Virus record (IMG/VR): IMGVR_UViG_3300047491_001507 | Direction: 5' to 3' (one strand) | DNA: 64,000 bases | DNA from: a virus | Part shown: positions 1 through 46,186 of the stretch, one piece after another | Position numbering within the stretch: the stretch's first letter is position 1 | Layout: each line of letters opens with the position of its first letter | Translations under genes and position numbers: made by a program | Notes under the pieces: generated by a model | Told to the model about the DNA's origin: nothing | Database searches by the model: none | What the model saw: the letters and a program-made list of their open reading frames with translations, nothing else

Positions 1-1
1 T

Positions 2-268
2 TATTCTTTAACAACAATTGCAAGTCAAGTAGTAATTGCACAAGTAAAAGCCAATTTAACTTTATCTGGCACTGCCAATCACACAGTGACTCTTACTTAC
101 AATGGAGTAACCAAGGACACATTGACTGTAAAGGGAGCTAATGGCTATATTATTCCAGTTACGCTGCATTATACAGAAACACCTGGAGCAGCCACCGCAA
201 ATGTCGTCATTGCAACTTCCAATGGCACATTAGGTAACATTGTGCATATTATCCAGAAAATTTCCTAA
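2..268 (+). CDS. C-terminal fragment of a protein whose start lies upstream of the window; Thr/Val-rich, probably beta-rich
   Basis: Frame of ORF 86..268 stays open back to base 2 with no stop, so this is a 3' partial gene. Confidence 0.45.
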   Translation, partial: YSLTTIASQVVIAQVKANLTLSGTANHTVTLTYNGVTKDTLTVKGANGYIIPVTLHYTETPGAATANVVIATSNGTLGNIVHIIQKIS

Positions 269-326
269 AAACACTTTCCAAAAATTGTTTTTGTGGTACA
301 ATTTGGTATGATTTGTATTCAAAATT

Positions 327-398
327 GGGGCGTTAGTTTAACGGATAGAACAAAAGTCTTCTAAACTTTAGATAGAGGTCCGATTCCTCTACGCCCTA
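327..398 (+). tRNA. tRNA-Arg (anticodon UCU)
   Basis: Cloverleaf folded by hand: acceptor GGGGCGT/ACGCCCT, D-stem GTTT/GAAC, anticodon stem AAAGT/ACTTT with loop CTTCTAA, T-arm AGAGG-TCCGATT-CCTCT. Confidence 0.8.
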
Positions 399-404
399 TT
401 TTTC

Positions 405-479
405 GAGACCATAGCTCAAATTGGATAGAGCAACGGACTTTTAATCCGTAGGTTGCGGGTCCGAATCCCGCTGGTCTCA
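405..479 (+). tRNA. tRNA-Lys (anticodon UUU)
   Basis: Acceptor GAGACCA/TGGTCTC, D-arm GCTC..GAGC, anticodon stem ACGGA/TCCGT with loop CTTTTAA, T-arm GCGGG-TCCGAAT-CCCGC. Confidence 0.85.
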
Positions 480-492
480 TTAGGAAATTCTT

Positions 493-669
493 ATGAATAA
501 TGAATATTGGAAAAATCCTGTAAAAGTCACAATTACTACAAAATGTCCACAATGTCACGAATTGTTTAGTCGTCTTGTCTATTCTATAGAAATTGCACCA
601 TATCAAGCATTGACATTGTGTCCAAAATGCGAAATCAACCCCGTTATTATGGTCAGTAAAACATATTAA
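493..669 (+). CDS. 58-aa C4 zinc-ribbon mini-protein (CPQC...CPKC)
   Basis: ATG to TAA ORF below the track cutoff, with two CxxC pairs, in the gap between the tRNAs and the HD gene. Confidence 0.45.
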   Translation: MNNEYWKNPVKVTITTKCPQCHELFSRLVYSIEIAPYQALTLCPKCEINPVIMVSKTY

Positions 670-682
670 TGAAAGGCTCGAA

Positions 683-1654
683 ATGACCGATCAAGAAATG
701 CTAGAAATTGCTCAATTGATGGTTGAATATTACACGGACAAAATTAACACAAAGCCATTTGTACTTCAATATCGTTTTCGTTCCCAAAATGAACGTGAAG
801 CTTGGTATGATAATGGAGAATGGCTTCCTAGTTGGGATTATGAAACAATTGAATATCGCAGAAAACCAGCAAATGAGGACTTTTATCAAAAAACACTGGA
901 AAGAACATTGGAAGAAATGTTATCCGCTTCCAAATTGATGGTCGAGTACTATCAAAATAAAATTAGTGGCACTCCCATTGAAGTTCAGTGTTGTCTTCGC
1001 ACTCCTACATTTGATAACAACTGGGAAGATGTTTCTTGTTCGGGTTGGGATATAGTAAAATACAAATATCGCAAGAAGCCTAAATTTTCAGACGATTTAG
1101 AATTTGCAATAGTAGTTGACTTTGTAGCAAATGCTCACAAAGGACAATTGCGTAAAGGCAGTAAATTGCCTTTTGTAATTCATCCATGTTCTGTTCTTAA
1201 AATCATCCGTAGTTGGGAAATTTCTGACAATACAATGCTAAAAGCTGTTTTGGCTCATGATGTTATTGAGGATTGTGAAATTTCTTATGACAAAGTTGAA
1301 GAAATTATTGGAACAGAAGCAGCAATAATTGTCAAAGAATTGACTTTTATCCCCAACAAACTTCGTTTAGTATCTGTTTCAAAGCAAAAAGCAGAATATC
1401 TTAGTAGTTTTAGCAAAAGATCATTGCAAGCATTAGTCATTAAATTGGCTGATCGTATTGATAATACTATGGATTTTTATTTGGATAATGACGCATATGC
1501 TTTGAAATATTGGGAAAAAGCAGAAGTTCTTTTTTATGCTTTTTATTCCAGAAAAAAAGAAATCGTAGAAGCATTTGGAGAAAGAACATATAAATTAATT
1601 GAAGAAAGTATTAAACAGGTGGAAGATCGGATTTATGTTAAAAAAATGGCGTAG
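683..1654 (+). CDS. HD-domain phosphohydrolase, SpoT/RelA-hydrolase-like (possible (p)ppGpp or small-alarmone hydrolase), with a duplicated N-terminal domain
   Basis: Motifs AHKGQLRKGSKLPFVIHP and LAHDVIED match the HD hydrolase domain of RelA/SpoT/Mesh1; N-terminus holds two ~65-aa internal repeats (LMVEYY..KI...WD..Y.YRKKP). Confidence 0.7.
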   Translation: MTDQEMLEIAQLMVEYYTDKINTKPFVLQYRFRSQNEREAWYDNGEWLPSWDYETIEYRRKPANEDFYQKTLERTLEEMLSASKLMVEYYQNKISGTPIEVQCCLRTPTFDNNWEDVSCSGWDIVKYKYRKKPKFSDDLEFAIVVDFVANAHKGQLRKGSKLPFVIHPCSVLKIIRSWEISDNTMLKAVLAHDVIEDCEISYDKVEEIIGTEAAIIVKELTFIPNKLRLVSVSKQKAEYLSSFSKRSLQALVIKLADRIDNTMDFYLDNDAYALKYWEKAEVLFYAFYSRKKEIVEAFGERTYKLIEESIKQVEDRIYVKKMA

Positions 1655-1988
1655 AATAATTTCTGAGGCAGGAAAGCCTAAACACGAATTTAATTTAGAA
1701 ACAAATAATTCTACTTGTGAAAATTGCAAACATTGGGAAGAGTACCCCAAAGAACCTTATGGGTTTCGGGGTCGTTGTCATCGATTTCCTCCATTTTCCT
1801 CTCACGATGAAATCTCTCGCAGAGTCACAGAGTATGGGTATTTTGGATATCAGCCCATCACAAATCACAACGATTGGTGTGGCGAATTTAGAAACAAAAA
1901 TTACAAAAATTGGCTCTGGAATACACTAAATGCTCTAGGTCTTGGAATTTTCTTTTATGTGGCTTTGAGACTTTTTCTGAATGTGTAA
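1635..1988 (+). CDS. hypothetical Cys/His-rich protein with C-terminal TM helix
   Basis: ORF 1599..1988 trimmed to the internal ATG at 1635 to limit overlap with the HD gene; CENCKHW...CHRF motifs, hydrophobic C-terminus. Confidence 0.45.
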   Translation: MLKKWRRIISEAGKPKHEFNLETNNSTCENCKHWEEYPKEPYGFRGRCHRFPPFSSHDEISRRVTEYGYFGYQPITNHNDWCGEFRNKNYKNWLWNTLNALGLGIFFYVALRLFLNV

Positions 1989-2083
1989 AGTGTTACCCAG
2001 CAACCACTTACGTCAAATTTTCATAGTTATATAGTCAATGTGGGCGGTTATGGGGTATAATATAGCAGAATTAGGAGATTAAA

Positions 2084-2551
2084 ATGCATTCGCCAACAGT
2101 AAATCATGAAATGCCAGAAGGTCCGTGGATGAGACGGTTGCAAAAAGACTCGTGGATTTGGCTCTGCAAGGAACAGCAGTATGCCAAGACAGTGTTTCCT
2201 TGGCAACCACCGCCACCAGGACGTAGATGGGGAGAATTAGCGTTATCGAGGATCGATGAACAATATGATAAAATACAAATTTGGTATGTTGGTCCACGAG
2301 GCGAAGGATTTGATGGAACACAATTGATTCTTCCTTGTGAGGGACATTTGTCAGAAACATTGGCAGAGATTATTGACAAAAAAGAAACAGATCTGTTTAT
2401 AATTTTGGAACGAATTCAAAACCGTTTAGACTTACACCATATAGCTTTATCGCAAATGAACGCAGAAATGCTGTTTCTTCTTAAAAAAATAGAAGAATTG
2501 GAAGAAGTACAAAAAAAGCAAATTTTGCCGTTGCGTTTTCCTTTTAACTAA
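2084..2551 (+). CDS. hypothetical protein
   Basis: 155-aa ORF; GGAG Shine-Dalgarno 8 nt upstream. Confidence 0.5.
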   Translation: MHSPTVNHEMPEGPWMRRLQKDSWIWLCKEQQYAKTVFPWQPPPPGRRWGELALSRIDEQYDKIQIWYVGPRGEGFDGTQLILPCEGHLSETLAEIIDKKETDLFIILERIQNRLDLHHIALSQMNAEMLFLLKKIEELEEVQKKQILPLRFPFN

Positions 2552-2561
2552 GGAGAGAAAG

Positions 2562-2879
2562 ATGGAGAAAGAAGTAGCTAAATGTGGATTGTGTGGTGAG
2601 CCAATGCCACCTGGGGAAGAAATGTTCAAATACCATGGTTATAGTGGAAATTGTCCAAAACCTCCTCTGCAAAAACCGAAAGTTCCTCGTCAAAACAGCT
2701 TGGTAGAAGCTAATAAAGAATCTCCCCACGTAGAAGGAGAACAATATATTTTTCTTGGGGAAATTCCCAATGTGCCAGGACGTTGTGTTATAGCTGATTT
2801 GACGGGGCGAATTTGTACAGGTCGCACAGAACACTTTGTTGAAGTGCCAGAAAATAAAGAGGAAACTTCCAATGGGTAA
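2562..2879 (+). CDS. small zinc-ribbon protein
   Basis: AGGAG SD upstream; CGLCGE...NCP motif. Confidence 0.5.
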   Translation: MEKEVAKCGLCGEPMPPGEEMFKYHGYSGNCPKPPLQKPKVPRQNSLVEANKESPHVEGEQYIFLGEIPNVPGRCVIADLTGRICTGRTEHFVEVPENKEETSNG

Positions 2880-3069
2880 GCTTGACGAAATGTTCGGCCA
2901 GATAATGTCTGCTCCATGGCTTACTGAAAAAAACAAAAGAAGCCTTCAAAAACTACTCGATAGAGCTAAGCGAGAGGTGGAAGAATCAGGAAAAACTGAA
3001 GACGAAGTAATAGAAACGATGACAAAAATGGTATTGTACGAATCATCCCGAAGAAGGGAGTTGAATTGA
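2872..3069 (+). CDS. hypothetical small protein
   Basis: ORF 2836..3069 trimmed to the ATG at 2872 preceded by a GAGGAAAC SD. Confidence 0.4.
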   Translation: MGKLDEMFGQIMSAPWLTEKNKRSLQKLLDRAKREVEESGKTEDEVIETMTKMVLYESSRRRELN

Positions 3070-3578
3070 TGAACAAACCAATTAAAGATGATGAAATCGT
3101 TGCTAAACTTGAAGAGTTTCAGCAATTGGAACGAGATACTAAGGACTATTTTCGTCTTCATTCGCCTCTTTGGAAAGCGATTGTTAATTACATTACAGAT
3201 TCTAAGCCACATAAGTGTGTATTGGGAGATAAAAAACTTCCTGTCCGAATTTTTAAAGGAAGTGGAGCAGGAGTCCATATCAAAAAAATCTATGCAAAGC
3301 CACCTGGAGCTTTTCCTGATCACGAAACTACGTTACGATTTGTTGTTGATGTGAATTTCGTTGATGTAGACGACGATGAAAGAGATTATGCAAGCATTTG
3401 GGGAATCGATGTTCCAATTTCCCTGGTCGAGCATTTTACAAAAGAGGGATTTAATAAATGGATTGCTGAAAAGGAAGCAGAGCATCTTAAGAAAGAAAAT
3501 GAAAAAGATCTCAAGGAATTAAAGGCAATTATTAAACGAAACCCAGATATTTTAAAGCTTTTGAAGGATAAAGGATGA
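3066..3578 (+). CDS. hypothetical protein
   Basis: 170-aa ORF; GGGAG SD; ATGA overlap with the neighbouring gene. Confidence 0.5.
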   Translation: MMNKPIKDDEIVAKLEEFQQLERDTKDYFRLHSPLWKAIVNYITDSKPHKCVLGDKKLPVRIFKGSGAGVHIKKIYAKPPGAFPDHETTLRFVVDVNFVDVDDDERDYASIWGIDVPISLVEHFTKEGFNKWIAEKEAEHLKKENEKDLKELKAIIKRNPDILKLLKDKG

Positions 3579-3766
3579 AAACAGTTCCAGATGATCTATG
3601 CGTTAAATATCAAAGGATTGATGGCGTACTCACGGTAATACTTCCAAAACTTATCTCGAAACAGGATTTTTTAGATTGGTTAAATGACAAGCCAAATAAA
3701 AAGCCATTGAAAGTTAAAGAATTGCCAGACACATGGACTTCAGCGGAGGATCAAAATGACGCATAA
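3575..3766 (+). CDS. hypothetical protein
   Basis: 63-aa ORF; AAGGA SD; overlaps the previous gene's stop. Confidence 0.45.
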   Translation: MKTVPDDLCVKYQRIDGVLTVILPKLISKQDFLDWLNDKPNKKPLKVKELPDTWTSAEDQNDA

Positions 3767-3986
3767 CGAAATTATTCAAGATTTTTTAGAATGCACAAGA
3801 TCCTTAGATAAAGCAATTACCGATGCTGGCGGGAGTAAGCTGGATATAGATGATTTGGAAAGAATGACCGCATTGGAACTTATTTCTTTGATTTGTACCA
3901 ATGGGATTCGTTTTCATGTTAAGCAAACAGTGAGTGCCAAGGTATTGAAAAAAACAGATCTTATTATTGAAAGCTGTAGAACATGA
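3756..3986 (+). CDS. hypothetical protein
   Basis: 76-aa ORF; GGAGG SD. Confidence 0.45.
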   Translation: MTHNEIIQDFLECTRSLDKAITDAGGSKLDIDDLERMTALELISLICTNGIRFHVKQTVSAKVLKKTDLIIESCRT

Positions 3987-4522
3987 AAGAAGATATATTT
4001 GATATACCTGATGAAATCTCGATAGATTTGCCAAAATTTTGTAAATTAGGCGGTAAAAACTTCGCTATCAAGGTGCTTTCTCGCAAAGACGCTGCAAACT
4101 TTACATGTGAAGTGCCATGGGCTGCAATTAGTATTGCATCTTTTCCTAATGAATGGCCAAATTTATCGGAAGACAACAGAGTAAATCTGCTTCAGTTGTA
4201 CTTTTTCGATCAAACAGTGCCAGGGGAACATGCTTTTACAGAAAATCATGCTAAAGAAATTATTCGATTTGTCGGAGAAGCATGGGGAAAAATCGATTGT
4301 TTGTTAGTTCATTGCGAGGCAGGACTTTCCAGATCGCCTGGAGTAGCTGCTGCTATTGCTAGGATTTTTCAAGGTGAAGGTCAGGATGCAGCTTATTTTA
4401 AGCAGTATTATCCAAATTATCTGGTTTACAAGATTTTGTTGGAAACTTACTTTGGAAAAAATGTGAATTTACATCCACAAAATGAAGAAACATATTGGGA
4501 CGACAATGATTTTATAGGTTAG
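3983..4522 (+). CDS. Cys-based phosphatase of the dual-specificity/PTP superfamily (could be a protein or an RNA 5'-phosphatase)
   Basis: Active-site signature VHCEAGLSRSPGV, i.e. the HCx5R(S/T) P-loop of PTP/DUSP enzymes. Confidence 0.7.
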   Translation: MKEDIFDIPDEISIDLPKFCKLGGKNFAIKVLSRKDAANFTCEVPWAAISIASFPNEWPNLSEDNRVNLLQLYFFDQTVPGEHAFTENHAKEIIRFVGEAWGKIDCLLVHCEAGLSRSPGVAAAIARIFQGEGQDAAYFKQYYPNYLVYKILLETYFGKNVNLHPQNEETYWDDNDFIG

Positions 4523-4530
4523 GATGTACA

Positions 4531-4788
4531 ATGTATGATCCTGAATTAGCATTGCAAAAAGAACAAGATCTAATTAGAGATAAAGTCCTGTTGGAAAGAG
4601 TTTCCAAAAGACTTGGAAGTGATCATCCTTGGACAAAACGAATCAAGTTGATGACAGATATCTTTCAAACTTTGTCTCAAAAAGAAGATGATCTAGACAA
4701 CTGTTTTGATCCAGATGTACAATATCGTCTTGAAAACGAAATAGACGAACTAATTCGTATTGCACGAGAAGTATTAAAAAAGAGCTAA
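4531..4788 (+). CDS. hypothetical protein
   Basis: 85-aa ORF in the co-oriented gene chain. Confidence 0.5.
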   Translation: MYDPELALQKEQDLIRDKVLLERVSKRLGSDHPWTKRIKLMTDIFQTLSQKEDDLDNCFDPDVQYRLENEIDELIRIAREVLKKS

Positions 4789-4790
4789 AA

Positions 4791-5057
4791 ATGTTTACTA
4801 TAGAATGGATTACTCCTAATGAGGATATTGGCGTAAAAGGAATTGTTATTTGTGAAACGCAGTTTAAAGTAGAGACTCGTTTTTGTAATGCTGAAACCAT
4901 GAATGGATTTAAAGAAATTGGGCTTTTAATGATGCCAGAGGCAACACGGCTCAGTGTTTTGCTTGGTGATACAAGATTCATTTTGAAAGATGGAGTTGGG
5001 TTTAATTGGGAAATTTCAACTAAAAAAGAGAACTCGTTTTTCTTACAAAAGGATTAA
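4791..5057 (+). CDS. hypothetical protein, paralog of the C-terminal domain of 5060..5398
   Basis: GIVICETQFKVE...MPEATRLSV matches GIVICETPSTFKFE...LPEATRISV of the next gene. Confidence 0.5.
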   Translation: MFTIEWITPNEDIGVKGIVICETQFKVETRFCNAETMNGFKEIGLLMMPEATRLSVLLGDTRFILKDGVGFNWEISTKKENSFFLQKD

Positions 5058-5059
5058 AA

Positions 5060-5398
5060 ATGCTGACACGACGAAACGTTCTGAAATGGGCTGCTGGATT
5101 ATTTGCATCATTTCCTTTTATGAAAGGAATGACAAAGGAAGCAGTTTCTAATAAGAACTATGGCATGGCAGGAATTGTTATTTGCGAAACACCATCTACA
5201 TTTAAATTTGAGGTTCGCAAAGCTCAAACCATGAATGAGTTTACTAAAATTGGACATCAGATTTTGCCAGAAGCAACACGAATTAGTGTTGTATTTTCTG
5301 AAACAAGATATAATGCTCCTAACAGATATATTTTATACGTTTTATTGGATGGGCCTGGGACGGAATGGAAAGTTCTCAACGGAGTAGCCATATCATGA
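5060..5398 (+). CDS. putative Tat-secreted protein
   Basis: N-terminal TRRNVLKWAAGLFA resembles a twin-arginine signal; C-terminal domain paralogous to 4791..5057. Confidence 0.5.
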   Translation: MLTRRNVLKWAAGLFASFPFMKGMTKEAVSNKNYGMAGIVICETPSTFKFEVRKAQTMNEFTKIGHQILPEATRISVVFSETRYNAPNRYILYVLLDGPGTEWKVLNGVAIS

Positions 5399-6225
5399 GC
5401 AAAGACAGTTTAGGCGATAGAATGAAGTTTTTTGAACAGAGATTTTCCATCTCTGTCATGCCCAAAACCCCTATTCTTGCGAGAATAGATGGACGTTCCT
5501 TCCACAGCTTTACCAGAGGTTTGGAAAGACCTTACGACATTCGGCTTTCCAACCTAATGATAGCAACTACTAAATTTCTGGTTGCCGAAACCAATGCACG
5601 TTGTGGATATACACAAAGTGACGAGATTTCTTTGGTTTGGCTAACAGAAGACGATCATGAAGAGACGTTTTTTGGCGGAAAACTCTCTAAATTAACTTCT
5701 GTGATAGGCTCGTTAGCAACAGCATATTTCAATAAGCATTTATCTGCTTATATCCCAGAAAAGGCAGATGCGATGCCGGTTTTTGATAATCGGGTCTGGG
5801 AATTGCCTACTTACGAAGAAGTAGCAAATTATTTCATCTGGCGGGAACAGGATGCTGTAAGAAATAGCATTCAAATGTCGGCCAGATCAGTATTTAGTCA
5901 CAGTGAATGCCACAAAAAGAACACATCTCAATTACAAGAGATGTTGTTTTCTAAGGGAATTAACTGGAATGATTATCCTCGATTTTTCCGTCGAGGCACC
6001 TATATTCGTCGTAGGGTGGTGGAACGGGAATTTACTCCAGAAGAATTAGCTAATTTGCCACCGAAGCACAATGCTTTGAAAGACCCAAATCTTCCTATTC
6101 GTCGTACAGTGATTATGGAGGAGGACTTTCCGATTTTGACGAAGGTTCAGAATCGGTCTGGAGTAATTTTGTTTGGTGCTGATCCCATAGTACAAAACGA
6201 TGTATTGGTGATTGATGAAGCATGA
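5395..6225 (+). CDS. Thg1-like protein (tRNA-His guanylyltransferase family, 3'-5' nucleotidyltransferase)
   Basis: RIDGRSFHSFTRGL and GYTQSDEISLVW match conserved Thg1/TLP motifs; start set at the ATG at 5395 (ATGA overlap). Confidence 0.7.
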   Translation: MSKDSLGDRMKFFEQRFSISVMPKTPILARIDGRSFHSFTRGLERPYDIRLSNLMIATTKFLVAETNARCGYTQSDEISLVWLTEDDHEETFFGGKLSKLTSVIGSLATAYFNKHLSAYIPEKADAMPVFDNRVWELPTYEEVANYFIWREQDAVRNSIQMSARSVFSHSECHKKNTSQLQEMLFSKGINWNDYPRFFRRGTYIRRRVVEREFTPEELANLPPKHNALKDPNLPIRRTVIMEEDFPILTKVQNRSGVILFGADPIVQNDVLVIDEA

Positions 6226-6422
6226 GTAACAAAGATAGAATCGGCATGACAGAAGTCATGAAAGATTGTTTGTCTGTATTACTTGATGCTGGCTTAACAG
6301 CAAACCAACTTAAGATTGCACAAGAGTGTTTGGCTAACTATGCACTATGTGCCTGTATGGACTCTAAAGTACATGAAGAATCTTTAGAGATTCTAAATTA
6401 TAGGAAAATTAAATCATTATAG
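6222..6422 (+). CDS. hypothetical protein
   Basis: 66-aa ORF; ATGA overlap with the Thg1-like gene. Confidence 0.45.
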   Translation: MSNKDRIGMTEVMKDCLSVLLDAGLTANQLKIAQECLANYALCACMDSKVHEESLEILNYRKIKSL

Positions 6423-6443
6423 TCGAAAGTCTCTAGGTGCTCA

Positions 6444-6653
6444 ATGAATAAATGGAAAATCGTTCAATATTATGGATGGACTGAAAATGGCAAACCGCTC
6501 TTGCCCAGTATGGACAATAAGGCGATTGCCACGTTTAAGTCATATTGGCGTGCATGGATTTACAAGTTTTTCCATTACGATTTTGCAGCGGAATCTGCTT
6601 ACAAAACGTCATTTATTTGGAAGATTGAGAAAGCAAAGGAGATCAAAAGATGA
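6444..6653 (+). CDS. hypothetical Trp-rich small protein
   Basis: 69-aa ORF ending in an ATGA overlap with the next gene; preferred over the overlapping 6472..6657 frame. Confidence 0.45.
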   Translation: MNKWKIVQYYGWTENGKPLLPSMDNKAIATFKSYWRAWIYKFFHYDFAAESAYKTSFIWKIEKAKEIKR

Positions 6654-6946
6654 TTAAGTTATTTCACAACACTCTTTCTGAGGACGAATATGCTGGTTGG
6701 TACATTTGTGAGGCTAGAGATCTTTCATTTCAAGTTGAAGATAATAAGTCTTGTTACGAATTGATTCAAAAAGCCTTAGAGCAAGAAATTCTAGATGTTT
6801 GTTTGCAATTAAAATTGGATGTAGGAGAAGAAGACGGTTTTACTCCAATTCTAGATGAAGAAAACGGAAAGAAATTGACTGAAGAATTATTGCGTCGAGA
6901 TTGGAAAAAAGAGTTTATTCCTATTGAGGGCCATGAAAATGATTAA
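6650..6946 (+). CDS. hypothetical protein, tandem duplicate pair (copy 1)
   Basis: MIKLFHNTLSEDEYAGWYI...EILDVCLQLKL is almost identical to the next gene. Confidence 0.5.
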   Translation: MIKLFHNTLSEDEYAGWYICEARDLSFQVEDNKSCYELIQKALEQEILDVCLQLKLDVGEEDGFTPILDEENGKKLTEELLRRDWKKEFIPIEGHEND

Positions 6947-7238
6947 GTTATTTTACAACGCCCTTTCTTACGACGAATATGCTGGCTGGTACATTAGTGA
7001 GCCTAGAGAACTTCCGTTTAAATCAGAAGGGCTAAAAGATGATGAATTTTATGCCAAATTGGCAATCATTCGAAAACATCTAGAGCAAGAAATTTTAGAT
7101 GTTTGTTTGTATTTAAAATTAGAAGTTGAAGAGGTAGGTGGTTATACTCCAGTTTTAGATGAAGAAAACGGGAAGAAATTGACTGAAGAGTTATTGCGTC
7201 GAGGTTGGAAAAAAGAGTTTATTCCTATTGGACCATGA
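6939..7238 (+). CDS. hypothetical protein, tandem duplicate pair (copy 2)
   Basis: Starts MIKLFYNALSYDEYAGWYI; paralog of 6650..6946. Confidence 0.5.
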   Translation: MIKLFYNALSYDEYAGWYISEPRELPFKSEGLKDDEFYAKLAIIRKHLEQEILDVCLYLKLEVEEVGGYTPVLDEENGKKLTEELLRRGWKKEFIPIGP

Positions 7239-7960
7239 AAATGAAAATCTTGATCACATCTGGCGGAACAAAAGTCCCAATCGATAAGGTTAGAGACATC
7301 ACAAACATGAGTCATGGAACCTTTGGCTCCAGAATTGCTTCTGTTGCATTGGAAGAAGGGCATGAAGTTTGTTTCTTGTGTGCCAAAGGATCTCGTACTC
7401 CATTCCGAAACGACTTCGATTTCTATAATAATAGCAAAGCAATCAATAAAGCAATGGAGTACTTTTTGTTTTGCGAAGAATATTGCGAACAATATTCCGA
7501 AACAGAATTTAGAAATTATGATGATTATGAAAAATTGCTTAGATTGCATTTAGATTGGAAGCCCGATGTGGTGATTTTGGCGGCTGCTGTAAGCGATTAT
7601 GGCGTTGCCAATTATGTGGATGGCAAAATCCGTACTCAAGATAATCTCCAAATTAATCTGGAACCGTTGCCTAAAATCATCGCTACAGTTAAGGAACGTC
7701 TTCCTGATTGTTTTTTGGTGGGATTTAAACTGTTGGTTTATGCTTCAGAGACAGAATTGATTGAGGAAGCTAACAAGAGCATCATGAATAATCGTTGCGA
7801 TTTGGTGGTTGCTAATGATTTAGCGTCACTTCAAGCCGACAATCATCGGTTATTTTTGGTTCGTCCTGATCAAGTTCCAGTGAGGTTTTGCAAGAATGAT
7901 GCACTGGAAGATCCTTACTATTTGGCACGCAAAGTGATTGAAGCAGCTACAGAAAGGTAA
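7235..7960 (+). CDS. coaB: phosphopantothenate-cysteine ligase (CoaB / PPCS)
   Basis: MKILITSGGTKVPIDKVRDITNMSHGTFG at the N-terminus and LVGFKLLVYASETE...CDLVVANDL, matching the CoaB nucleotide-binding and GFxAET motifs. Confidence 0.8.
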   Translation: MKMKILITSGGTKVPIDKVRDITNMSHGTFGSRIASVALEEGHEVCFLCAKGSRTPFRNDFDFYNNSKAINKAMEYFLFCEEYCEQYSETEFRNYDDYEKLLRLHLDWKPDVVILAAAVSDYGVANYVDGKIRTQDNLQINLEPLPKIIATVKERLPDCFLVGFKLLVYASETELIEEANKSIMNNRCDLVVANDLASLQADNHRLFLVRPDQVPVRFCKNDALEDPYYLARKVIEAATER

Positions 7961-7964
7961 CGAG

Positions 7965-8798
7965 ATGATAAATATTACGCCACAACGGGCCTTTCAATGT
8001 GCATTAAATCAAGGAAAGCGTTTTCCTGAAATGGAACCAGCTATCCTTGCCGATCCATATTGCGCTTATTGTTATGTTTTACATATTTTAAATAAACGTG
8101 TACGCAAAAAACCTAAACGTTGGGCAGAAGCAGAGAAGGTAATTATTGATGAAAAAAGAGCAGAATTGGCTTTCAATTATGCCAAAGAAATAATCCAAGG
8201 TCGTTGGGAAGAAGCAGAAGAGGTAATTGCTGCCAGCCCAAGATTTGCTTATTTATATGCTAATTATATAATTCAGGGACGTTGGCCTAAAGGTGAACTG
8301 GTAATTGCACAAAGTCCACATTATGCATATTGTTATGCAAAAGATGTGCTAAAATCTCGTTGGTCTGAAGCGGAGAAAACAATTGCAAAAGATCCAGAGT
8401 ATGCTTATAAGTACGCTTACTACGTAATTAAAGGTCGCTTTTCTGAAGCGGAGAAAACAATTGCAAAAGATCCAGAGTATGCTTATAAGTACGCTTGTGA
8501 CGTAGTTTGTGGCCGCTTTCCTGAAGCAGAAGCAACACTTGCAAAAAGCGATTATTATGCTTACAGATATGCTAGTGACGTAGTTCGTGGTCGTTGGGCT
8601 AAAGGCGAAAGAGCAATAATTACTGATCGAAATTGTGCCTGTTCATATGCTAAGGATGTGCTAAAATCCCGCTGGCGTAAAGCAGAGCCATTAATTGCTC
8701 AAAATCACTATCTCGCTTATGAATATGCAAGCCATTTTAAGTTAGAAATGTTTATTACTTTTAAATCCAAGAAACAAAAAAAAGGTGTCAAAAAATGA
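7965..8798 (+). CDS. 33-aa repeat family protein (YAxxYAxxVIKGRWPEGExAIA repeats)
   Basis: About seven tandem copies of the ~33-aa repeat; paralog of 25121.., 27273.., 32708.. and the - strand copies. Confidence 0.6.
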   Translation: MINITPQRAFQCALNQGKRFPEMEPAILADPYCAYCYVLHILNKRVRKKPKRWAEAEKVIIDEKRAELAFNYAKEIIQGRWEEAEEVIAASPRFAYLYANYIIQGRWPKGELVIAQSPHYAYCYAKDVLKSRWSEAEKTIAKDPEYAYKYAYYVIKGRFSEAEKTIAKDPEYAYKYACDVVCGRFPEAEATLAKSDYYAYRYASDVVRGRWAKGERAIITDRNCACSYAKDVLKSRWRKAEPLIAQNHYLAYEYASHFKLEMFITFKSKKQKKGVKK

Positions 8799-9148
8799 TC
8801 GTTGACAGACGAGAATTTGATTTTTTTACCGTAGAGGCAAAGAAAAATACTAACCATGTAGATTTTATAATTTACGAGGGAATAGGATATCTGGAAGCTT
8901 TTGAAAAACAAATAGAACTAGGCATCGATCCAGCACTTGGTCCTAATTATGACGACGGGCCATTGGTTAAAGGCTATGTTAAATGGGATGGATGTTCAAA
9001 TTGGGACTTCCCTCATGAGGCCAATACAACTCATCCATTGCATTTTTGTGGTAAACTAGAAGCAGCATGTTTTGGCAAAATGATTGTTGAACTTTATGAG
9101 TGGGCGGCTGAATTGATGCCAGAACATAAAAGCATGATATTAGAATAA
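8795..9148 (+). CDS. hypothetical protein
   Basis: 117-aa ORF; ATGA overlap. Confidence 0.5.
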   Translation: MIVDRREFDFFTVEAKKNTNHVDFIIYEGIGYLEAFEKQIELGIDPALGPNYDDGPLVKGYVKWDGCSNWDFPHEANTTHPLHFCGKLEAACFGKMIVELYEWAAELMPEHKSMILE

Positions 9149-9156
9149 ACACACTT

Positions 9157-9471
9157 ATGAAAGGGTTGAAAATGTACGTTTTTGTATCGTTTAGCAATGT
9201 AGATACTAAGAAAAATCTTGGCTGTTGTATTGTTCGGAGCAATGAAGAAAATTGGCTTGATGATTGTGATAGATTAGGTCTAAGACCAAATGGAGCAAAT
9301 AATATTATAGGCTATCCATTAAACGAAGAAGAATTTCAAGCACAAGGAATAGAATTGAATCGTTTTTATACTCGTGAAGAAATGCTTCAAGAAGGCTTTG
9401 AAAAAATAAGTCCAAACAATGAAACGCATAGCGTTCACCGATTCGTTTGTGTCAAAGAAAGAACAACATGA
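9157..9471 (+). CDS. hypothetical protein
   Basis: 104-aa ORF in the + gene chain. Confidence 0.45.
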   Translation: MKGLKMYVFVSFSNVDTKKNLGCCIVRSNEENWLDDCDRLGLRPNGANNIIGYPLNEEEFQAQGIELNRFYTREEMLQEGFEKISPNNETHSVHRFVCVKERTT

Positions 9472-10022
9472 TTATACCAATCTGGACTGATGTGGATGGC
9501 AAAGACTGGGAAGAATGCCTGTCTGATCTAAATCTTATTGATTTACTTATCGAGGCTTATGCTAAACAATTAAAGAATGATGTTTTTCAGTATTTACAGG
9601 ATCAAGGACATCAGCCTGTTCCCGTAATGCCACAACGTATGTCAGCGGACGTTGCTCAGTTTATTGGGAATAATGAGATTTTGGCTGAAGCCATCAAAGT
9701 CTGCAAGGAAAAAATCAAGATACAAAATGAAAAGGATGCATGTGAAGCTTGGGCTAGACATGAAGCATGGATTGATGGTCCATATAAGAAAAATTGTCAA
9801 AAAGCCCGCAATCTTGGCATACAAGCCAGAAAAGATGGATTGCCAAGGATTTGTAATATTACTGATGATCCTGAACTTTGCCATAACGGTACGATTTTCA
9901 GATGTTATGCTGATGCTTGGTGTTCTGGTTGGGATGGATTTACTATTCCTAAAGAATTTCTTCAAGTAGAACAAAATTTAGCCAAATTGCCAACAAGACC
10001 AATGACCGAAGAGGATTTCTAA
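9468..10022 (+). CDS. hypothetical Cys-rich protein
   Basis: ORF 9447..10022 trimmed to the ATG at 9468; TAATG junction with coaC. Confidence 0.5.
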   Translation: MIIPIWTDVDGKDWEECLSDLNLIDLLIEAYAKQLKNDVFQYLQDQGHQPVPVMPQRMSADVAQFIGNNEILAEAIKVCKEKIKIQNEKDACEAWARHEAWIDGPYKKNCQKARNLGIQARKDGLPRICNITDDPELCHNGTIFRCYADAWCSGWDGFTIPKEFLQVEQNLAKLPTRPMTEEDF

Positions 10023-11131
10023 TGTACAACATTCTTCTAGGCGTCACAGGTAGCGTAGCTTCCACCCTGACAGTAAAAATTGTTAAAGCTTTGCAAAGCT
10101 TAGGAGAAGTACGGGTTATTGCCACTAAATGTGGGGAACAATTCCTACGTCCCGAAGACAAAATTGAAATTGGCAAAGTTTATCTGGAAGAAGATGAATG
10201 GCCTGATTTCTATTGGGAAAAAGATGATCCCGTCATGCACATTGAACTGCGTAAGTGGGCAAGTGCTTTAGTAATTGCTCCATTATCCGCCAATACAATG
10301 GCAAAAATGGTTCATGGAATTTGCGATAATTTGCTAACAAGTGTTTTTCGTGCTTGGGATCACCAAAGACCCGTAATTGTGGCTCCTGCCATGAATTCCA
10401 TTATGTGGGAGAATAATCCTACAGGAAATCAAGTAGAAATTTTGAAGAATTGGGGTATTAAGGTTGTGTCTCCACAATCTAAAGTTTTAGCCTGTGGAGA
10501 CGAGGGCATAGGTGCTATGGCAGATATTTCTAAAATAGTGGAAGTAACTGCCGCTAGTTTGGTTTGGGATTTCCCGTTAAAAACTATCTATGGAGTTCCA
10601 ACTTGCAATGGAATTCCTATCAATCATCATCCAGGGGCTTTTGGGTTTCACCGAAAACACAATTTCCATACAGGCGTTGACCTTTATACTGAAGACAAGG
10701 CTTCAGTGAGTGCGGTAGAAAATGGCAGAATAGTAAAATTGGAGCAATTTACTGGCCCAGAAGTAGGTCATGAATGGTGGGAGAAAACCTGGGGATTGAT
10801 GATTGAAGGACCGTCTGGAGTAGTAAATTATGGCGAAATCAGCATGCCGCCTTCGTGGATTAATGTAGGTGATAAAGTCATCAAAGGACAATATATTGGT
10901 AGTGTGAAACGGGTTTTGTTTCCTGATCGGTTACGTCCTGATATCCCAGGTCATTCATGCAGTATGCTACATATAGAATTGTATAAGCATGGGGTTAGGG
11001 ATTTTACAGGTTGGGAAGATCCTGCCAAAAATCCTGATTTGCTTGATCCTACGCCTTATTTGATTAAGGCAAGATATGCACCAAATAAGACATTAACTTG
11101 GGATAATCCAGAGGGAAAGGAAGTAGGATAA
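10022..11131 (+). CDS. coaC: phosphopantothenoylcysteine decarboxylase (CoaC flavoprotein) fused to a C-terminal M23 (LytM-type) peptidase domain
   Basis: N-terminal half has LLGVTGSVAS, APAMNSIMW (PxMNxxMW) and VLACGDEGIGAM (the ACGD catalytic Cys of PPC-DC); C-terminal half has HTGVDLY...NGRIV and HSCSMLHIELY (HxxxD / HxH M23 motifs). Confidence 0.75.
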   Translation: MYNILLGVTGSVASTLTVKIVKALQSLGEVRVIATKCGEQFLRPEDKIEIGKVYLEEDEWPDFYWEKDDPVMHIELRKWASALVIAPLSANTMAKMVHGICDNLLTSVFRAWDHQRPVIVAPAMNSIMWENNPTGNQVEILKNWGIKVVSPQSKVLACGDEGIGAMADISKIVEVTAASLVWDFPLKTIYGVPTCNGIPINHHPGAFGFHRKHNFHTGVDLYTEDKASVSAVENGRIVKLEQFTGPEVGHEWWEKTWGLMIEGPSGVVNYGEISMPPSWINVGDKVIKGQYIGSVKRVLFPDRLRPDIPGHSCSMLHIELYKHGVRDFTGWEDPAKNPDLLDPTPYLIKARYAPNKTLTWDNPEGKEVG

Positions 11132-11132
11132 T

Positions 11133-11324
11133 ATGCTTAAAATTACACTCAGCAATGGAGCAGAATTTACAGTTGATAAAGAACGATGGACTGAAAATGG
11201 TCTTGTAGGTCACTTTATCATGCCTGATGGCGAACTCACATGTGGAGAATGTGTGTTTTTTCATAAAAATTCTGCCAAAAGAAAATCTGATACACCATAC
11301 ATTGTAATGTTAGTGGAGAAATAA
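11133..11324 (+). CDS. hypothetical small protein
   Basis: 63-aa ORF immediately after coaC. Confidence 0.45.
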   Translation: MLKITLSNGAEFTVDKERWTENGLVGHFIMPDGELTCGECVFFHKNSAKRKSDTPYIVMLVEK

Positions 11325-11626
11325 TGACAGAAGAAAACGAAATTATCAAACAATATCTTGTGGATAATCCTTATGATCCAAACGACCCAAGTACTTTGCC
11401 GCCAGGATGGGAAGTTAGATTTAACCGAAGAGGTCGTTTTTATCAATATAAAACCATTGAAGAGGTAGAGCGAAGGAATAACTTGTCGTTTAGCGATGAG
11501 TGGGAAAAAATGAAGGCAAGTATGCAAGAAGGAGACGAGGTTTGGTTGTATGGCAATGATGTAGAAATACTTTGTTTAGTACGAAATAATGAAATCATTA
11601 AAGAAATATGTTTTACGTGTTTATAA
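11324..11626 (+). CDS. hypothetical protein
   Basis: 100-aa ORF. Confidence 0.5.
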   Translation: MTEENEIIKQYLVDNPYDPNDPSTLPPGWEVRFNRRGRFYQYKTIEEVERRNNLSFSDEWEKMKASMQEGDEVWLYGNDVEILCLVRNNEIIKEICFTCL

Positions 11627-11636
11627 GGAGATTTAC

Positions 11637-11918
11637 ATGATTACTGGAGAAGGGGGGTTTATCAGTAGGATGATGCCGCCTACTGATTGGAATCATGGTC
11701 CGATACCGGTAGAGTGTTTTGATAAGTCACTAAGTAAACAACAGATATTTGAAATGCTAAAATCTGTCTATCTTGAGCCAGATCGTGTTAGGAAATTGGC
11801 AGCAAGTGATGATGAAACAGAAATTTGGCGTACAAAATTTGCTATAGAAATTGTAGCAGAAATGGATGCTGATACGATTTGGTTTTTCAATTTGCAGAAT
11901 GAGAAGGAATCGGGATAA
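11637..11918 (+). CDS. hypothetical protein
   Basis: ORF 11589.. trimmed to the ATG at 11637 preceded by an AAGGAG SD. Confidence 0.5.
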   Translation: MITGEGGFISRMMPPTDWNHGPIPVECFDKSLSKQQIFEMLKSVYLEPDRVRKLAASDDETEIWRTKFAIEIVAEMDADTIWFFNLQNEKESG

Positions 11919-12196
11919 TGCGTATTTTTGACTGTGACCAAGACCAAGAAAAGATGAAAGGAACGCATGGTTTTGGCTATGATACAGAGTTTGGCACAGG
12001 CACAGGTTATGGCCGAGGCAATGGCGGCGGTCCTTGTGATGGAATATTGTCAGATTGCAATGGGCTTGGTGACGTATGTGGCCGTGGACATGGAAACGGC
12101 ATGTATGAAACTAATTATGGATTTCCCGAAAGTTGCAATAAAATCTTTGAAATTCCCAAATTGGCTGGAACTTTCGGTTTAGAAGTATATGATTGA
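11918..12196 (+). CDS. Gly-rich GxGxG small protein family member
   Basis: GFGYDTEFGTGTGYGRGNGGGPCDG...GHGNG low-complexity, like the 55-62 kb array. Confidence 0.5.
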   Translation: MRIFDCDQDQEKMKGTHGFGYDTEFGTGTGYGRGNGGGPCDGILSDCNGLGDVCGRGHGNGMYETNYGFPESCNKIFEIPKLAGTFGLEVYD

Positions 12197-17476: not shown

Positions 17477-17926
17477 ATGTTTTCACGAAGACAATTTTTG
17501 ACAACAACAGCGTTGGGCGTAACATCCTTAGGCACAACATCTTTAGCGTCTACACAAAATTTGGATGATAAGACTTATCTCCGTAATAGAACTGTTTGGC
17601 TTGTTGTGGAGAGTTGCCAGGACATGGTTTTCACTGGGGCAATTGTTGGATATGACATTATAGATAAAATAATTAAAGCTACTACTATGTTTAATTCTGT
17701 CTATAAGCTTATCCGTTATCCTTTTGTTACTGATATTTCAAAGATAAAGTCCGAAAATAGTCAAAATGTATATTATCTTTGGGCTATGCATGATCTTAGT
17801 CTTCGTCCTGCATTAGTGCTGATGGATATGATGTCGGGAGATTTCCAATCAGTACTTGAACATGCTTTAAAAACATATCCAAAACAATTTGTTTTGATCC
17901 GTCGCTCTTGGAAGGAAAGGGAATGA
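17477..17926 (+). CDS. putative Tat-secreted protein (paralog of 30346..30786)
   Basis: MFSRRQFLTTTALGVTSLG is a twin-arginine signal (SRRxFL); C-terminal ALKTYPKQFVLIRRSW is shared with its paralog. Confidence 0.55.
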   Translation: MFSRRQFLTTTALGVTSLGTTSLASTQNLDDKTYLRNRTVWLVVESCQDMVFTGAIVGYDIIDKIIKATTMFNSVYKLIRYPFVTDISKIKSENSQNVYYLWAMHDLSLRPALVLMDMMSGDFQSVLEHALKTYPKQFVLIRRSWKERE

Positions 17927-18360
17927 TCAACAGACCTGTTGTTGGCGTAGCATTAATCGTTCGAAAAAATTATCAGATTTTGCTCCATAAGCGAATAGGA
18001 AAACATGCTCCTGGCACTTGGTCTTGCCCAGGTGGTCATCTGGAAATGTGGGAAGAATTTGCAGAAGCCGCTTTGAGAGAATTGAAAGAAGAAGCTGGTC
18101 CCGTAGAAGTTACGGAACCAGTTTTACTTACTGTGTGTAATACCATGTTTAAGTCCGAAGACAAACATAGTATTACCATCTTTTTGGTATCTGATTGGAT
18201 AAGCGGAGAGCCAAAAGTTACTGAGCCAGATAAATGTGAGGAATGGCTATGGTTTGATTATGACAATCTTCCTGAGCCACTTATGTTGGGCATTCAGAAG
18301 ATTAAGGAGCAGAAATTATTGAAAGTGGTTATGACTAAACCATATGATTTGTTAGTTTAG
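17923..18360 (+). CDS. Nudix hydrolase
   Basis: Nudix box GGHLEMWEEFAEAALRELKEEAG (Gx5Ex7REUxEExGU). Confidence 0.75.
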   Translation: MINRPVVGVALIVRKNYQILLHKRIGKHAPGTWSCPGGHLEMWEEFAEAALRELKEEAGPVEVTEPVLLTVCNTMFKSEDKHSITIFLVSDWISGEPKVTEPDKCEEWLWFDYDNLPEPLMLGIQKIKEQKLLKVVMTKPYDLLV

Positions 18361-21054: not shown

Positions 21055-21804
21055 ATGTTTACGACAATTTTGATTGCTGTGGTTGTGGTGGTTTGTTTGG
21101 CTGCGATTAGTCCTCCTGCTCGTCGTTTTTTCAAGGCAATTGGACTATGGGGTGGGGCACAAGCGGATAAAGGAGCAGAGGCAGTTCTGAATGCTGATCC
21201 TCTTGGCGTCCTAAAAACCCAAATCAAAAATGCTGCTGAAAATGGCAAGCAAGCTAATGCTGTGGTAGTGGCTGCTGCTAAACAGTTGGTTTCTTTGGAA
21301 AATCAAATTGCCGATGACCTAAAGGAACAGCAACGACTTACCACTCGTATTGAATCGGTTTTGGCTAAAGGCGATCCCAATAAGAATGCCGCAAAGTACG
21401 CTGCTGATTTGGCTCGGGTTGAAGAAAATCTGAAAGCCAATGAAGAACAGAAGGCAATCGCTCAACAGCAATATGATGACAATCTGAAGTTGGTTGAACG
21501 ATTTGAACGGGAGATTCAAGAAGCCCGAAAGGATGCGGCTGCTCTTGGGGCTCAATTGCAGCAATCTGAGGCAGAAAAGAATTTGAATCAAATGTCTGCT
21601 GCCCTCAAGGATCGGCTTAATGTTGGCGATTTGGCTGCGGCACGCCAGAGAGTTAAGGACCAAATTAATGAGAATCGAGGAGCCTCCAAGGCATCTCGTG
21701 ATCTAAATCGAGTTGCTCTGGCTGAAGAAGAAGATGAGGAATTGGAGCGATCTGCTGCGGCAGAAGCTGTTCTGGCTAGGTTCCAAAAACCCGTAACAGA
21801 ATAA
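21055..21804 (+). CDS. PspA/IM30/Vipp1-family protein (ESCRT-III-like membrane remodelling) with hydrophobic N-terminus
   Basis: Long coiled-coil with PspA-like segments (...LENQIADDLKEQQRLTTRIE...); GAGGGAA SD; higher-GC codon usage than the surroundings. Confidence 0.65.
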   Translation: MFTTILIAVVVVVCLAAISPPARRFFKAIGLWGGAQADKGAEAVLNADPLGVLKTQIKNAAENGKQANAVVVAAAKQLVSLENQIADDLKEQQRLTTRIESVLAKGDPNKNAAKYAADLARVEENLKANEEQKAIAQQQYDDNLKLVERFEREIQEARKDAAALGAQLQQSEAEKNLNQMSAALKDRLNVGDLAAARQRVKDQINENRGASKASRDLNRVALAEEEDEELERSAAAEAVLARFQKPVTE

Positions 21805-31217: not shown

Positions 31218-31233
31218 TGGAGAAGAAAAATAA

Positions 31234-31308
31234 GCCAGTGTAGCTCAAATGGAAGAGTCTCGTGTCATTGTGGCATGGGAGATGTTGGTTCGAATCCAAC
31301 CACTGGCT
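31234..31308 (+). tRNA. tRNA-like element (possible degenerate tRNA or tRNA remnant); anticodon arm non-canonical
   Basis: Exact 7-bp acceptor GCCAGTG/CACTGGC, D-arm TAGCTCAAATGGAAGAGT and T-arm GTTGG-TTCGAAT-CCAAC at correct tRNA spacing (75 nt), but the middle 25 nt fold into an 8-bp hairpin with a 5-nt loop. Confidence 0.45.
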
Positions 31309-31319
31309 TGGAGGAAAAA

Positions 31320-39706: not shown

Positions 39707-39735
39707 TCGCCGTTCCTTGGAGCGGCGATTGTTAT
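39707..39735. terminator. possible bidirectional terminator at the convergent strand switch
   Basis: TCGCCG-ttccttggag-CGGCGA hairpin flanked by T-runs on both strands, between the last + gene and the first - gene. Confidence 0.35.
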
Positions 39736-42019: not shown

Positions 42020-42035
42020 ATGTAATATATAGAGT

Positions 42036-44685: not shown

Positions 44686-44700
44686 TATTCCGCTCTCTTT

Positions 44701-44910
44701 CTAAGGCACAAAAACAATAAAATCGTAATAAGTCAACATACTAACAAATATAATTGTAGCCGATATAATAAAAACTGCGATTGTGTGTTTGGTTCTTGGA
44801 TGATACGGATATGCAATAACTGCTGTAACTAACATCATTACTACAAAAAGCACTACAAATAGTAGTAGCCAGAAAATGACAGAGAGAATTGGTTGAGTAT
44901 GAATAACCAT
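44701..44910 (-). CDS. small membrane protein (2-3 TM)
   Basis: Highly hydrophobic 69-aa ORF. Confidence 0.45.
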   Translation of the reverse strand: MVIHTQPILSVIFWLLLFVVLFVVMMLVTAVIAYPYHPRTKHTIAVFIISATIIFVSMLTYYDFIVFVP

Positions 44911-45002
44911 TTTTAAGAACGCTCCTTGGAACCTCTACTTTTAAATATTAACAAAAACACGATTGCCACCATCATCAAAACATTCAACTCGTTGATAACA
45001 TC

Positions 45003-45191: not shown

Positions 45192-45219
45192 AATTAATTC
45201 CTTTCATTTTCAAACATTC

Positions 45220-46163: not shown

Positions 46164-46186
46164 CTTTAATCTGCAATTTCTAGTAC

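Follow-up and report, generated by a model that had tools for sequence, protein, structure and literature searches.

Gene content of the Thg1-like locus

The window analysed here is a 64,000-nucleotide stretch of viral DNA (IMG/VR record IMGVR_UViG_3300047491_001507), and our subject is a gene for a Thg1-like protein (TLP) that lies downstream of a cysteine (Cys) phosphatase gene. An original prediction, made by a model that saw only the letters and their open reading frames (ORFs), had joined these two genes with a Nudix hydrolase and a SpoT-like HD hydrolase into a possible toolkit acting on RNA 5' ends. The window is AT-rich (GC 35–41%) and densely packed with short ORFs, which lie on the + strand up to about 39.7 kb and on the - strand thereafter. 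A megablast search of positions 3000..9000 against 50,697 GenBank phage records returned no match, indicating that the source has no close cultured relative. A 306-kb contig encodes a protein 100% identical to the phosphatase, as do two Logan contigs from other samples; a contig of at least 306 kb, together with the missing GenBank phage match, indicates that the DNA comes from a very large uncultured phage.

Positions 3983-6225 hold five tightly packed, co-directional ORFs on the + strand: the phosphatase gene, three small ORFs and the Thg1-like gene. The phosphatase gene (3983..4522) encodes a 179-amino-acid protein of a divergent dual-specificity type belonging to the PHROG 5614 family. It is followed by an ORF of 85 amino acids (4531..4788), also predicted as a gene on Logan contig L165, with neither a Pfam or PHROG match nor a homologue in the 80 TLP loci described below. 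The next two ORFs, of 88 (4791..5057) and 112 amino acids (5060..5398), are tandem paralogues that share the pattern GIVICET...MN.F..IG...PEATR.SV in their translations; no family match was obtained for them in Pfam or PHROG, and no homologue was found in other TLP loci. The N-terminus of the second paralogue resembles a Tat (twin-arginine) signal: MLTRRNVLKWAAGLFASFPF (TRRNVLK). Its stop codon overlaps the start of the TLP gene as ATGA.

The TLP gene occupies 5395..6225 on the + strand and encodes 276 amino acids, the longest possible ORF beginning at 5365. The ATG at 5395 is the likely start: it forms the ATGA overlap with the upstream stop, a GGAG stands ahead of it, and the gene was called from this same position independently on the Logan contigs. 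The distance from the phosphatase stop (4522) to the TLP start is 843–873 bp, with the three small ORFs inside it, in agreement with the roughly 900 bp originally given. Further upstream on the same strand lie tRNA-Arg (UCU) at 326..399, tRNA-Lys (UUU) at 405..479 and the gene for a small alarmone hydrolase-like HD protein of the Mesh1/SpoT hydrolase type (683..1654). The Nudix hydrolase gene (17923..18360, + strand) is MutT/NUDX1/NUDT15-like. A promoter and terminator scan of positions 1..12000 gave matches at the level of shuffled sequence and was uninformative on operon structure.

The Thg1-like protein is of the bacterial repair type

Both motifs on which the Thg1 assignment had been based, RIDGRSFHSF and YTQSDEISLVW, were found in the TLP translation, and profile searches bore the assignment out. 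The protein matches the Pfam Thg1 domain PF04446 with 108.3 bits (cutoff 29.2; E 3.4e-31) over profile positions 2-130 of 130, and PHROG 4717, annotated as 'tRNA-His guanylyltransferase', with an E-value of 6.2e-83. Its best relative of solved structure is the Bacillus thuringiensis TLP (BtTLP, PDB 4kgk; 2.9e-42, 41% identity over 205 residues), whereas the E-values for eukaryotic Thg1 proteins (Candida, yeast-type and human) are far weaker (1.5e-17 to 1e-9). The Thg1 C-terminal domain PF14413 scored 20.0 bits, under its cutoff of 26.3, and the BtTLP alignment runs through residue 209 of 245. No NCBIfam model matched either the TLP or the phosphatase. Because the palm fold is shared, a GGDEF/Cas10/mCpol-like cyclase was considered as a candidate and rejected on the 41% identity to BtTLP.

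The metal-binding carboxylates are D32, within RIDG, and D76-E77, within SDE; they fall at the corresponding motifs in alignments to BtTLP and Candida Thg1, and are equivalent to D29, D76 and E77 of human Thg1. The original prediction had called for a check of the residues that recognise tRNA-His. In the HINNLYN motif of eukaryotic Thg1, H154 stacks on the tRNA-His anticodon base G36 (PMC6471195). The window TLP carries AVRNSIQ in its place and BtTLP carries ASKNSIS, so that the window enzyme is not expected to be dedicated to adding a non-templated G-1 to tRNA-His. Because the BtTLP match lies far above those to eukaryotic Thg1 and HINNLYN is replaced, ORF 5395..6225 is, by its sequence, a bacterial-type TLP of the repair type and not a dedicated tRNA-His G-1 enzyme.

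The two characterised groups differ in how closely they resemble the window protein. In BtTLP (PDB 4KGK/4KGM) the RIDG and SDE motifs recur, and the segment at the HINNLYN position is likewise of the non-HINNLYN kind. Eukaryotic Thg1 (Candida albicans 3WBZ, human 3OTB) and the window TLP belong to one palm-like fold family and have the metal-binding carboxylates and, presumably, the three-step 3'-5' addition chemistry in common, but overall similarity is much weaker and the anticodon-recognition motif is absent from the window protein. According to the BtTLP study, that enzyme prefers 5'-truncated tRNAs 5-160-fold over -1 addition, shows no bias for G in repair and also works on tRNAs other than tRNA-His (PMC3061083). 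Templated repair of 5'-truncated tRNAs by BtTLP may thus serve as the functional model for the window TLP, which differs in being phage-encoded, in its predicted rather than measured function, and in a C-terminal extension of about 60 amino acids that is common to most of its metagenomic relatives.

An exhaustive search placed the protein in a large family, with 6,147 clusters at 50% identity reaching E <=0.001 and 1,554 reaching E <=1e-30; the nearest cluster representatives are 52-54% identical to it. By tblastn, 164 GenBank phage records contain the family, most of them from jumbo phages; carriers include 201phi2-1 (annotated 'putative Thg1'), CcrPW, BcepSaruman, GAP32, CBB and many Bacillus phages. 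The top GenBank match comes from a 635-kb uncultured phage (54% identity), and IMG/VR holds at least 247 TLP-encoding stretches. Thg1 already figures in a 2021 survey of jumbo phages, as a sporadically occurring nucleotidyltransferase of RNA repair by which 5' nucleotides are restored (PMC7824862). The window TLP is thus another member of an already catalogued phage family and is not new for phages.

Phage Thg1-like genes lie among RNA-repair and tRNA genes

To describe the genomic surroundings of phage TLPs, 80 loci with 10-kb flanks were collapsed into 60 lineages at 85% TLP identity, their ORFs were clustered, and neighbours were named by Pfam. The families recurring within 10 kb of a TLP were NAMPT (13/60 lineages), NADAR (9/60), an RNA ligase composed of PF09414 plus the PHA02142 OB domain (9/60), HAD_SAK_2 (8/60), a CCA-adding/PolyA_pol enzyme (7/60), the HD family homologous to window ORF 683..1654 (7/60) and RlaP (6/60). 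By its match to the RNA ligase of Naegleria (5cot, 5.9e-39) the ligase belongs to the Rnl5 type, and in six of the nine lineages that have it the gene lies within 1.5 kb of the TLP (binomial p ~6e-4 against uniform placement over ±10 kb). The HAD_SAK_2 phosphatase was also considered as the usual TLP-adjacent gene and was dropped, being within 1.5 kb in only 2 of its 8 lineages.

In four loci the TLP gene lies within an array of tRNA genes: L046 (30 tRNAs), L066 (9 tRNAs), L026 and L008. Locus L046 (IMGVR_UViG_3300014204_000109, 1..11000) has its TLP embedded in the 30-tRNA array, which contains no tRNA-His; indeed, no tRNA-His gene was found within 10 kb of the TLP in any of the 60 loci scanned. 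Two close metagenomic relatives of the window TLP, P0177 and P0066, are fusions of an N-terminal AAA_33 kinase, which is polynucleotide kinase (PNK)-like, to a C-terminal Thg1 domain, which suggests that 5'-phosphorylation is coupled to 3'-5' extension. Since a 5'-kinase provides the 5'-monophosphate that a TLP activates, such a fusion is what an end-healing role predicts. Taken together, ligase adjacency, tRNA arrays and kinase fusions support an RNA- or tRNA-repair reading for the TLP family.

The window resembles these loci only in part. Its TLP is 40-54% identical to members of the jumbo-phage family PHROG 4717, which includes the proteins of Pseudomonas phage 201phi2-1, Caulobacter phage CcrPW and Burkholderia phage BcepSaruman, but none of the phages that carry the family is syntenic with it. 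Where those phages have ligase, CCA-adding, RlaP and NAD-salvage neighbours, the window instead has a dual-specificity phosphatase (DSP) 0.85 kb upstream. Besides the TLP, the HD gene and the phosphatase gene, no window gene has a homologue in any TLP locus.

The upstream Cys phosphatase has a dual-specificity fold

The phosphatase carries the P-loop H110-C111-EAGLS-R117-S118, an HCx5R(S/T) signature, so that the original reading of a Cys phosphatase with HCx5R was borne out. Against Pfam DSPc it scored 23.1 bits, under the cutoff of 33.5, and all 29 of its homologues likewise match DSPc weakly. The family is compact, with a core of about 138 amino acids, and has representatives in phages (PHROG 5614, 'unknown function') and some bacteria; members carry the JGI label 'predicted protein tyrosine phosphatase'. 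C111 and R117 are invariant in the 29 close and in 11 very divergent homologues. The general-acid residue D76, in an F-x-D motif 35 residues ahead of C111, is invariant in the 11 divergent homologues and retained in at least 90% of the 29 close ones. A weak match to the Pfam Rit1 DUSP-like domain appeared in 20/29 homologues (best E 0.003) and was too weak to be used, and the genes around a Pirellulaceae homologue offered no information.

The AF2 model of the phosphatase is confident (pLDDT 88.5) and has a DSP fold. The DSP fold, the HCx5R loop and the acid Asp about 35 residues before the catalytic Cys are the features that liken the protein to DUSP28, STYX, DUSP5, vaccinia VH1, baculovirus BVP (1YN9) and PIR1 (4MBB). 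Within this company the modelled structure appears nearer to the protein dual-specificity phosphatases (DUSPs) than to the RNA 5'-phosphatases BVP, PIR1 and Mce1, and neither structure nor sequence revealed a specific affinity to the RNA 5'-tri/diphosphatase branch (BVP, PIR1/DUSP11, Mce1). To our knowledge, the RNA triphosphatase branch of Cys phosphatases does not carry the general-acid Asp. With a DUSP-like structure and a retained general acid, the phosphatase therefore does not point to an RNA 5'-phosphatase.

Its neighbourhoods were examined in a sample of 80 phosphatase loci, equal to 60 lineages. Six of these lineages have an Rnl5-type ligase within 10 kb, and in all six it lies within 0.9 kb of the phosphatase, in several arrangements (p ~1e-5). 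In L112 the phosphatase adjoins a CCA-adding enzyme. Two TLP loci, L044 and L063, have a phosphatase homologue (29% identity) that overlaps the TLP start codon (ATGAGTAA), an arrangement of translational coupling; their TLP is 36% identical to that of the window, and a CCA-adding enzyme lies 5 kb upstream. The family is rare, occurring in 5 of the 50,697 GenBank phage records. A polynucleotide-end role for the phosphatase is on these grounds a reasonable lead, not an established function.

A further phosphatase homologue (L167) was observed in Sinorhizobium phage Phosso (PV764938, 167.5-182 kb), where it lies in a block of RNA-ligase and aminoacyl-tRNA synthetase genes; the annotations there comprise an RNA ligase, an ATP-grasp protein, CysRS, a SerRS-like gene, a tRNA, Pth and a metallophosphatase.

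The HD hydrolase, the tRNA genes and the Nudix hydrolase

The HD and Nudix hydrolases were located and classified as originally proposed, both with profile matches above cutoff. ORF 683..1654 contains an HD_4 domain (PF13328, 41.1 bits, cutoff 27.2, 1.9e-10), and its PDB matches are Mesh1 (3nqw, 8e-13), Rel/SpoT hydrolase domains and a small alarmone hydrolase (SAH; 7qoc, 5.8e-10). The Mesh1 alignment displays HP..., AHDVIED and KLADRIDN. Its TIGR00691 match is limited to the hydrolase part (positions 4-119 of 687), with no synthetase domain. The protein thus resembles small alarmone hydrolases such as Mesh1 and PaSpo of phage SSU5 in having HD...ED...KLADR..N in an HD_4 domain without a synthetase; it differs from them in a duplicated N-terminal region, and its hydrolase activity is predicted. 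The duplication, seen in the translation and in a tblastn self-hit, spans about 60 amino acids in the N-terminal half (window 683..1100), at residues ~5-62 and 80-135.

Homologues of this HD protein lie within 10 kb of a TLP in seven of the 60 TLP lineages, compared with none of the 60 phosphatase lineages (Fisher p 0.013). The SAH PaSpo neutralises toxSAS toxins, and hydrolase antitoxins can reverse toxSAS pyrophosphorylation, including that of tRNA CCA ends, by which the anti-phage system CapRel works (PMC9712102). By analogy, a tRNA-protective role for the window HD protein is plausible. Given this documented chemistry, such a role, if on tRNA, would concern alarmones or the 3' CCA end and not 5' ends. 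The place of the HD protein in the proposed toolkit is accordingly a divided matter: the alarmone-hydrolase type and the recurrence near TLPs hold, but its documented chemistry would not concern 5' ends and it is never adjacent to a TLP.

The window has three tRNA genes, Arg-UCU and Lys-UUU (together 326..479) and Gln-UUG (31233..31309), and Rfam found nothing else. All three read A-ending codons, fitting the AT-rich genome, and CCA is encoded in none of them. The Arg and Lys genes (Rfam tRNA scores of 65.5 and 71 bits, respectively; both found by ARAGORN) are 5 nt apart, just upstream of the HD gene. Lysine and arginine tRNAs are known targets of anticodon nucleases. ARAGORN detected no tRNA-His gene in the window. 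An attempt to extend the stretch upstream for more tRNAs or a tRNA-His, using exact-pattern scans of IMG/VR and JGI metagenomes, gave no match; about 230 nt were gained from contigs.

The Nudix protein matches PF00293 with 76.4 bits (cutoff 21.1; 2.8e-21) and has an intact Nudix box. Its best PDB relatives are of the MutT/NUDX1/NUDT15 type (4kyx, 1.7e-25), and it falls far under the NCBIfam models for decapping enzymes, with 30.7 bits against a cutoff of 116 for RppH and 19.2 against 158 for NudC. The gene lies 12 kb from the TLP gene, and no homologue of it was found in any TLP locus. It most likely serves nucleotide housekeeping unrelated to the TLP, and its proposed part in an RNA 5'-end toolkit finds no support.

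Other genes in the window

Two further genes near the locus look like a split CoaBC, that is, auxiliary genes of the CoA-biosynthesis type. The CoaB-like ORF (7205/7235..7960) matches PF04127, phosphopantothenate-cysteine ligase, with 112 bits and NCBIfam PRK06732 with 137 bits, the latter under its cutoff. The CoaC-like flavoprotein (10022..11131) matches PF02441 with 106 bits and TIGR02113 with 127 bits, and its C-terminal part is weakly M23-peptidase-like. A second pair of tandem paralogues (6650..6946 and 6924/6933..7238) starts with MIKLF.N.LS.DEYAGWYI and ends with ...EELLRR.WKKEFIPI.

A cluster of modification-type enzymes spans 39732..48225, around the strand switch. It comprises a NodU/CmcH-type carbamoyltransferase (39732..41213, - strand), an HD protein (41210..42019, - strand) and three radical SAM proteins (42036..43019 on the + strand; 45220..46008 and 47353..48225 on the - strand), and may represent a pathway for nucleoside, DNA or peptide modification. 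Large proteins encoded at 7938..8798, 25121..26881, 27273..29504 and 32708..34048 give weak repeated matches to Phage_FRD3 and HTH_35 and contain repeats of the AEK/AE...YAY type; they look like a paralogous repeat-protein family. The + block also encodes a PspA/IM30-like protein (21055..21804) that matches PF04012 with 32.9 bits, just below the cutoff of 33.9.

Interpretation and alternatives

We consider it rather probable, largely by analogy with BtTLP, that the TLP performs templated 3'-5' repair of tRNA and that its gene belongs to a loose cluster of several accessory genes serving the tRNA pool of the phage. The substrate and the in vivo role that we infer here follow characterised relatives. 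The enzyme would activate a tRNA 5'-monophosphate with ATP or GTP, or take an existing 5'-triphosphate, and would then add Watson-Crick-templated nucleotides in the 3'-5' direction, with the 3' strand of the acceptor stem as template. As a result, 5'-truncated tRNAs of any identity would be restored. The TLP, the two phage tRNAs and the SpoT/Mesh1-type hydrolase could keep the tRNA pool usable during infection, with the hydrolase either degrading alarmones or stripping toxSAS-added 3'-pyrophosphate from tRNA. The DSP-type Cys phosphatase encoded upstream might serve as a partner in end processing, which is the weakest step of the scheme.

Conceptually, this arrangement resembles the Pnkp-Rnl1 system of phage T4, a set of phage enzymes that restores tRNAs damaged by host defence (background in PMC7824862), but the window lacks all of the T4 components. 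The two would also differ in the lesion addressed: T4 repairs breaks in the anticodon loop, whereas a TLP would carry out templated synthesis on the 5' strand of the acceptor stem.

Several observations weigh against tRNA repair by a group of cooperating genes. We know of no host defence that trims tRNA 5' ends; the attacks known to us are directed at anticodon loops, which are cut, or at the 3' CCA, which is modified. The acceptor stems of the three window tRNAs are fully paired, with only a G1-U72 wobble in tRNA-Arg, so nothing in the window calls for 5' editing. In tblastn searches with representative proteins, the 64-kb window yielded no ligase, CCA-adding enzyme, RlaP, HAD_SAK, NADAR, NAMPT, Macro or AAA_33 kinase, and of the families that recur beside TLPs only the HD family is present. 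In none of the 60 TLP lineages does an HD homologue lie within 1.5 kb of the TLP. Linkage between phosphatase and TLP is rare as well: it occurs in 2/60 TLP lineages, the phosphatase is missing from L075, which is closely related to L044, and no TLP occurs in any of the 80 phosphatase loci. Moreover, the closest relatives of the window phosphatase (48-56% identity) sit in a conserved PolA-DnaB-Ogg-...-gp32-RecA replication module. Finally, no report of biochemistry on a phage TLP was found in the searchable literature. The tRNA-repair reading first suggested for the locus thus stands on the repair type of the TLP and on the repair genes beside its relatives in other phages, while the window itself is without a ligase, CCA-adding enzyme, RlaP, PNK or HAD_SAK.

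Many of the same observations are what one would expect if the TLP is genuine and the genes are independent accessory genes that share a crowded early/accessory region, a possibility to which we assign a substantial minority of our belief. The phosphatase would then be a protein (Ser/Thr/Tyr) phosphatase directed at host signalling, or a DNA-end phosphatase of a replication/repair module; the Nudix protein would sanitise the nucleotide pool, and the HD protein would only degrade (p)ppGpp or (pp)pApp. An HC-x-AG-x-SRS P-loop with an invariant general-acid Asp is typical of protein and lipid DUSPs, the genes most often found near the phosphatase in its loci are those for RecA, PolA, DnaB and Ogg, and the closest homologues lie between DnaB/Ogg and gp32/RecA. 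The MutT-like character of the Nudix protein and the restriction of shared genes to TLP, HD and phosphatase agree with this picture. It accounts less well for the phosphatase adjoining Rnl5-type ligases in six lineages and a CCA-adding enzyme in L112, and overlapping the TLP start in L044 and L063, linkages that chance is unlikely to produce in so rare a family.

A more specific function for the TLP would be maintenance of tRNA-His identity, by adding G-1 opposite C73 to a phage or host tRNA-His that lacks it, so that HisRS can charge it. Phage databases name the family 'tRNA-His guanylyltransferase', and BtTLP adds a templated N-1 to tRNA-His and weakly complements yeast thg1 (PMC3061083). 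The same source reports the preference for truncated tRNAs noted above and states that G-1 is genome-encoded in most bacteria. With the anticodon-reading HINNLYN motif absent, and with no tRNA-His in the window or near the TLP in the scanned loci, the 30-tRNA array included, we judge this function quite improbable. Still less credit is due to the integrated toolkit of the original prediction, in which the phosphatase is an RNA 5'-tri/diphosphatase and the Nudix protein a decapping enzyme, both acting on the same RNA ends as the TLP. TLP products carry a 5'-triphosphate and mature tRNAs a 5'-monophosphate, so an enzyme trimming ppp to p would fit, but Thg1 enzymes can remove the 5'-pyrophosphate themselves (PMC6471195). 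The coupling of phosphatase and TLP in L044 and L063 speaks for the toolkit; the modelled DUSP-like structure, the retained general acid and the remote, MutT-like Nudix protein speak against it, and we regard it as very improbable. What survives of the phosphatase's proposed place in it is the proximity to TLP and Rnl5 genes in a few lineages, set against its absence from TLP company in the phosphatase sample and its DUSP-like structure; the partnership with the TLP is the weakest link in the chain first proposed.

Significance for phage tRNA repair

Templated tRNA repair remains our preferred reading of the TLP, and within it the phosphatase linkages invite a bolder proposal, which we put forward as unlikely on present evidence: that phage tRNA repair includes an as yet unrecognised enzyme for processing RNA ends, the PHROG 5614 Cys phosphatase, as a partner of TLPs and Rnl5 ligases. 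It might trim the 5'-polyphosphate left by the TLP, or take off a 3'- or 2'-phosphate. If so, the phosphatase would hand a ligatable end to the Rnl5-type nick-sealing ligase, TLP, phosphatase and ligase would together form a gap-repair pathway for the acceptor stem, and the window would hold a reduced version of that module, consisting of TLP plus phosphatase.

By itself, the window gene adds little beyond one more member of its family. The recurring linkage of the PHROG 5614 phosphatase with Rnl5-type ligases or a TLP gives the enzymology of RNA repair a new lead, if a modest one. Lying close to RNA ligase genes, within tRNA arrays and, in some relatives, fused to PNK-like kinases, the phage copies of bacterial-type TLPs provide a practicable system for identifying the damage that these enzymes naturally repair. 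Phage TLPs may in this way provide a route to an unrecognised host attack on tRNA 5' ends, a question that concerns the whole phage TLP family and not this locus alone.

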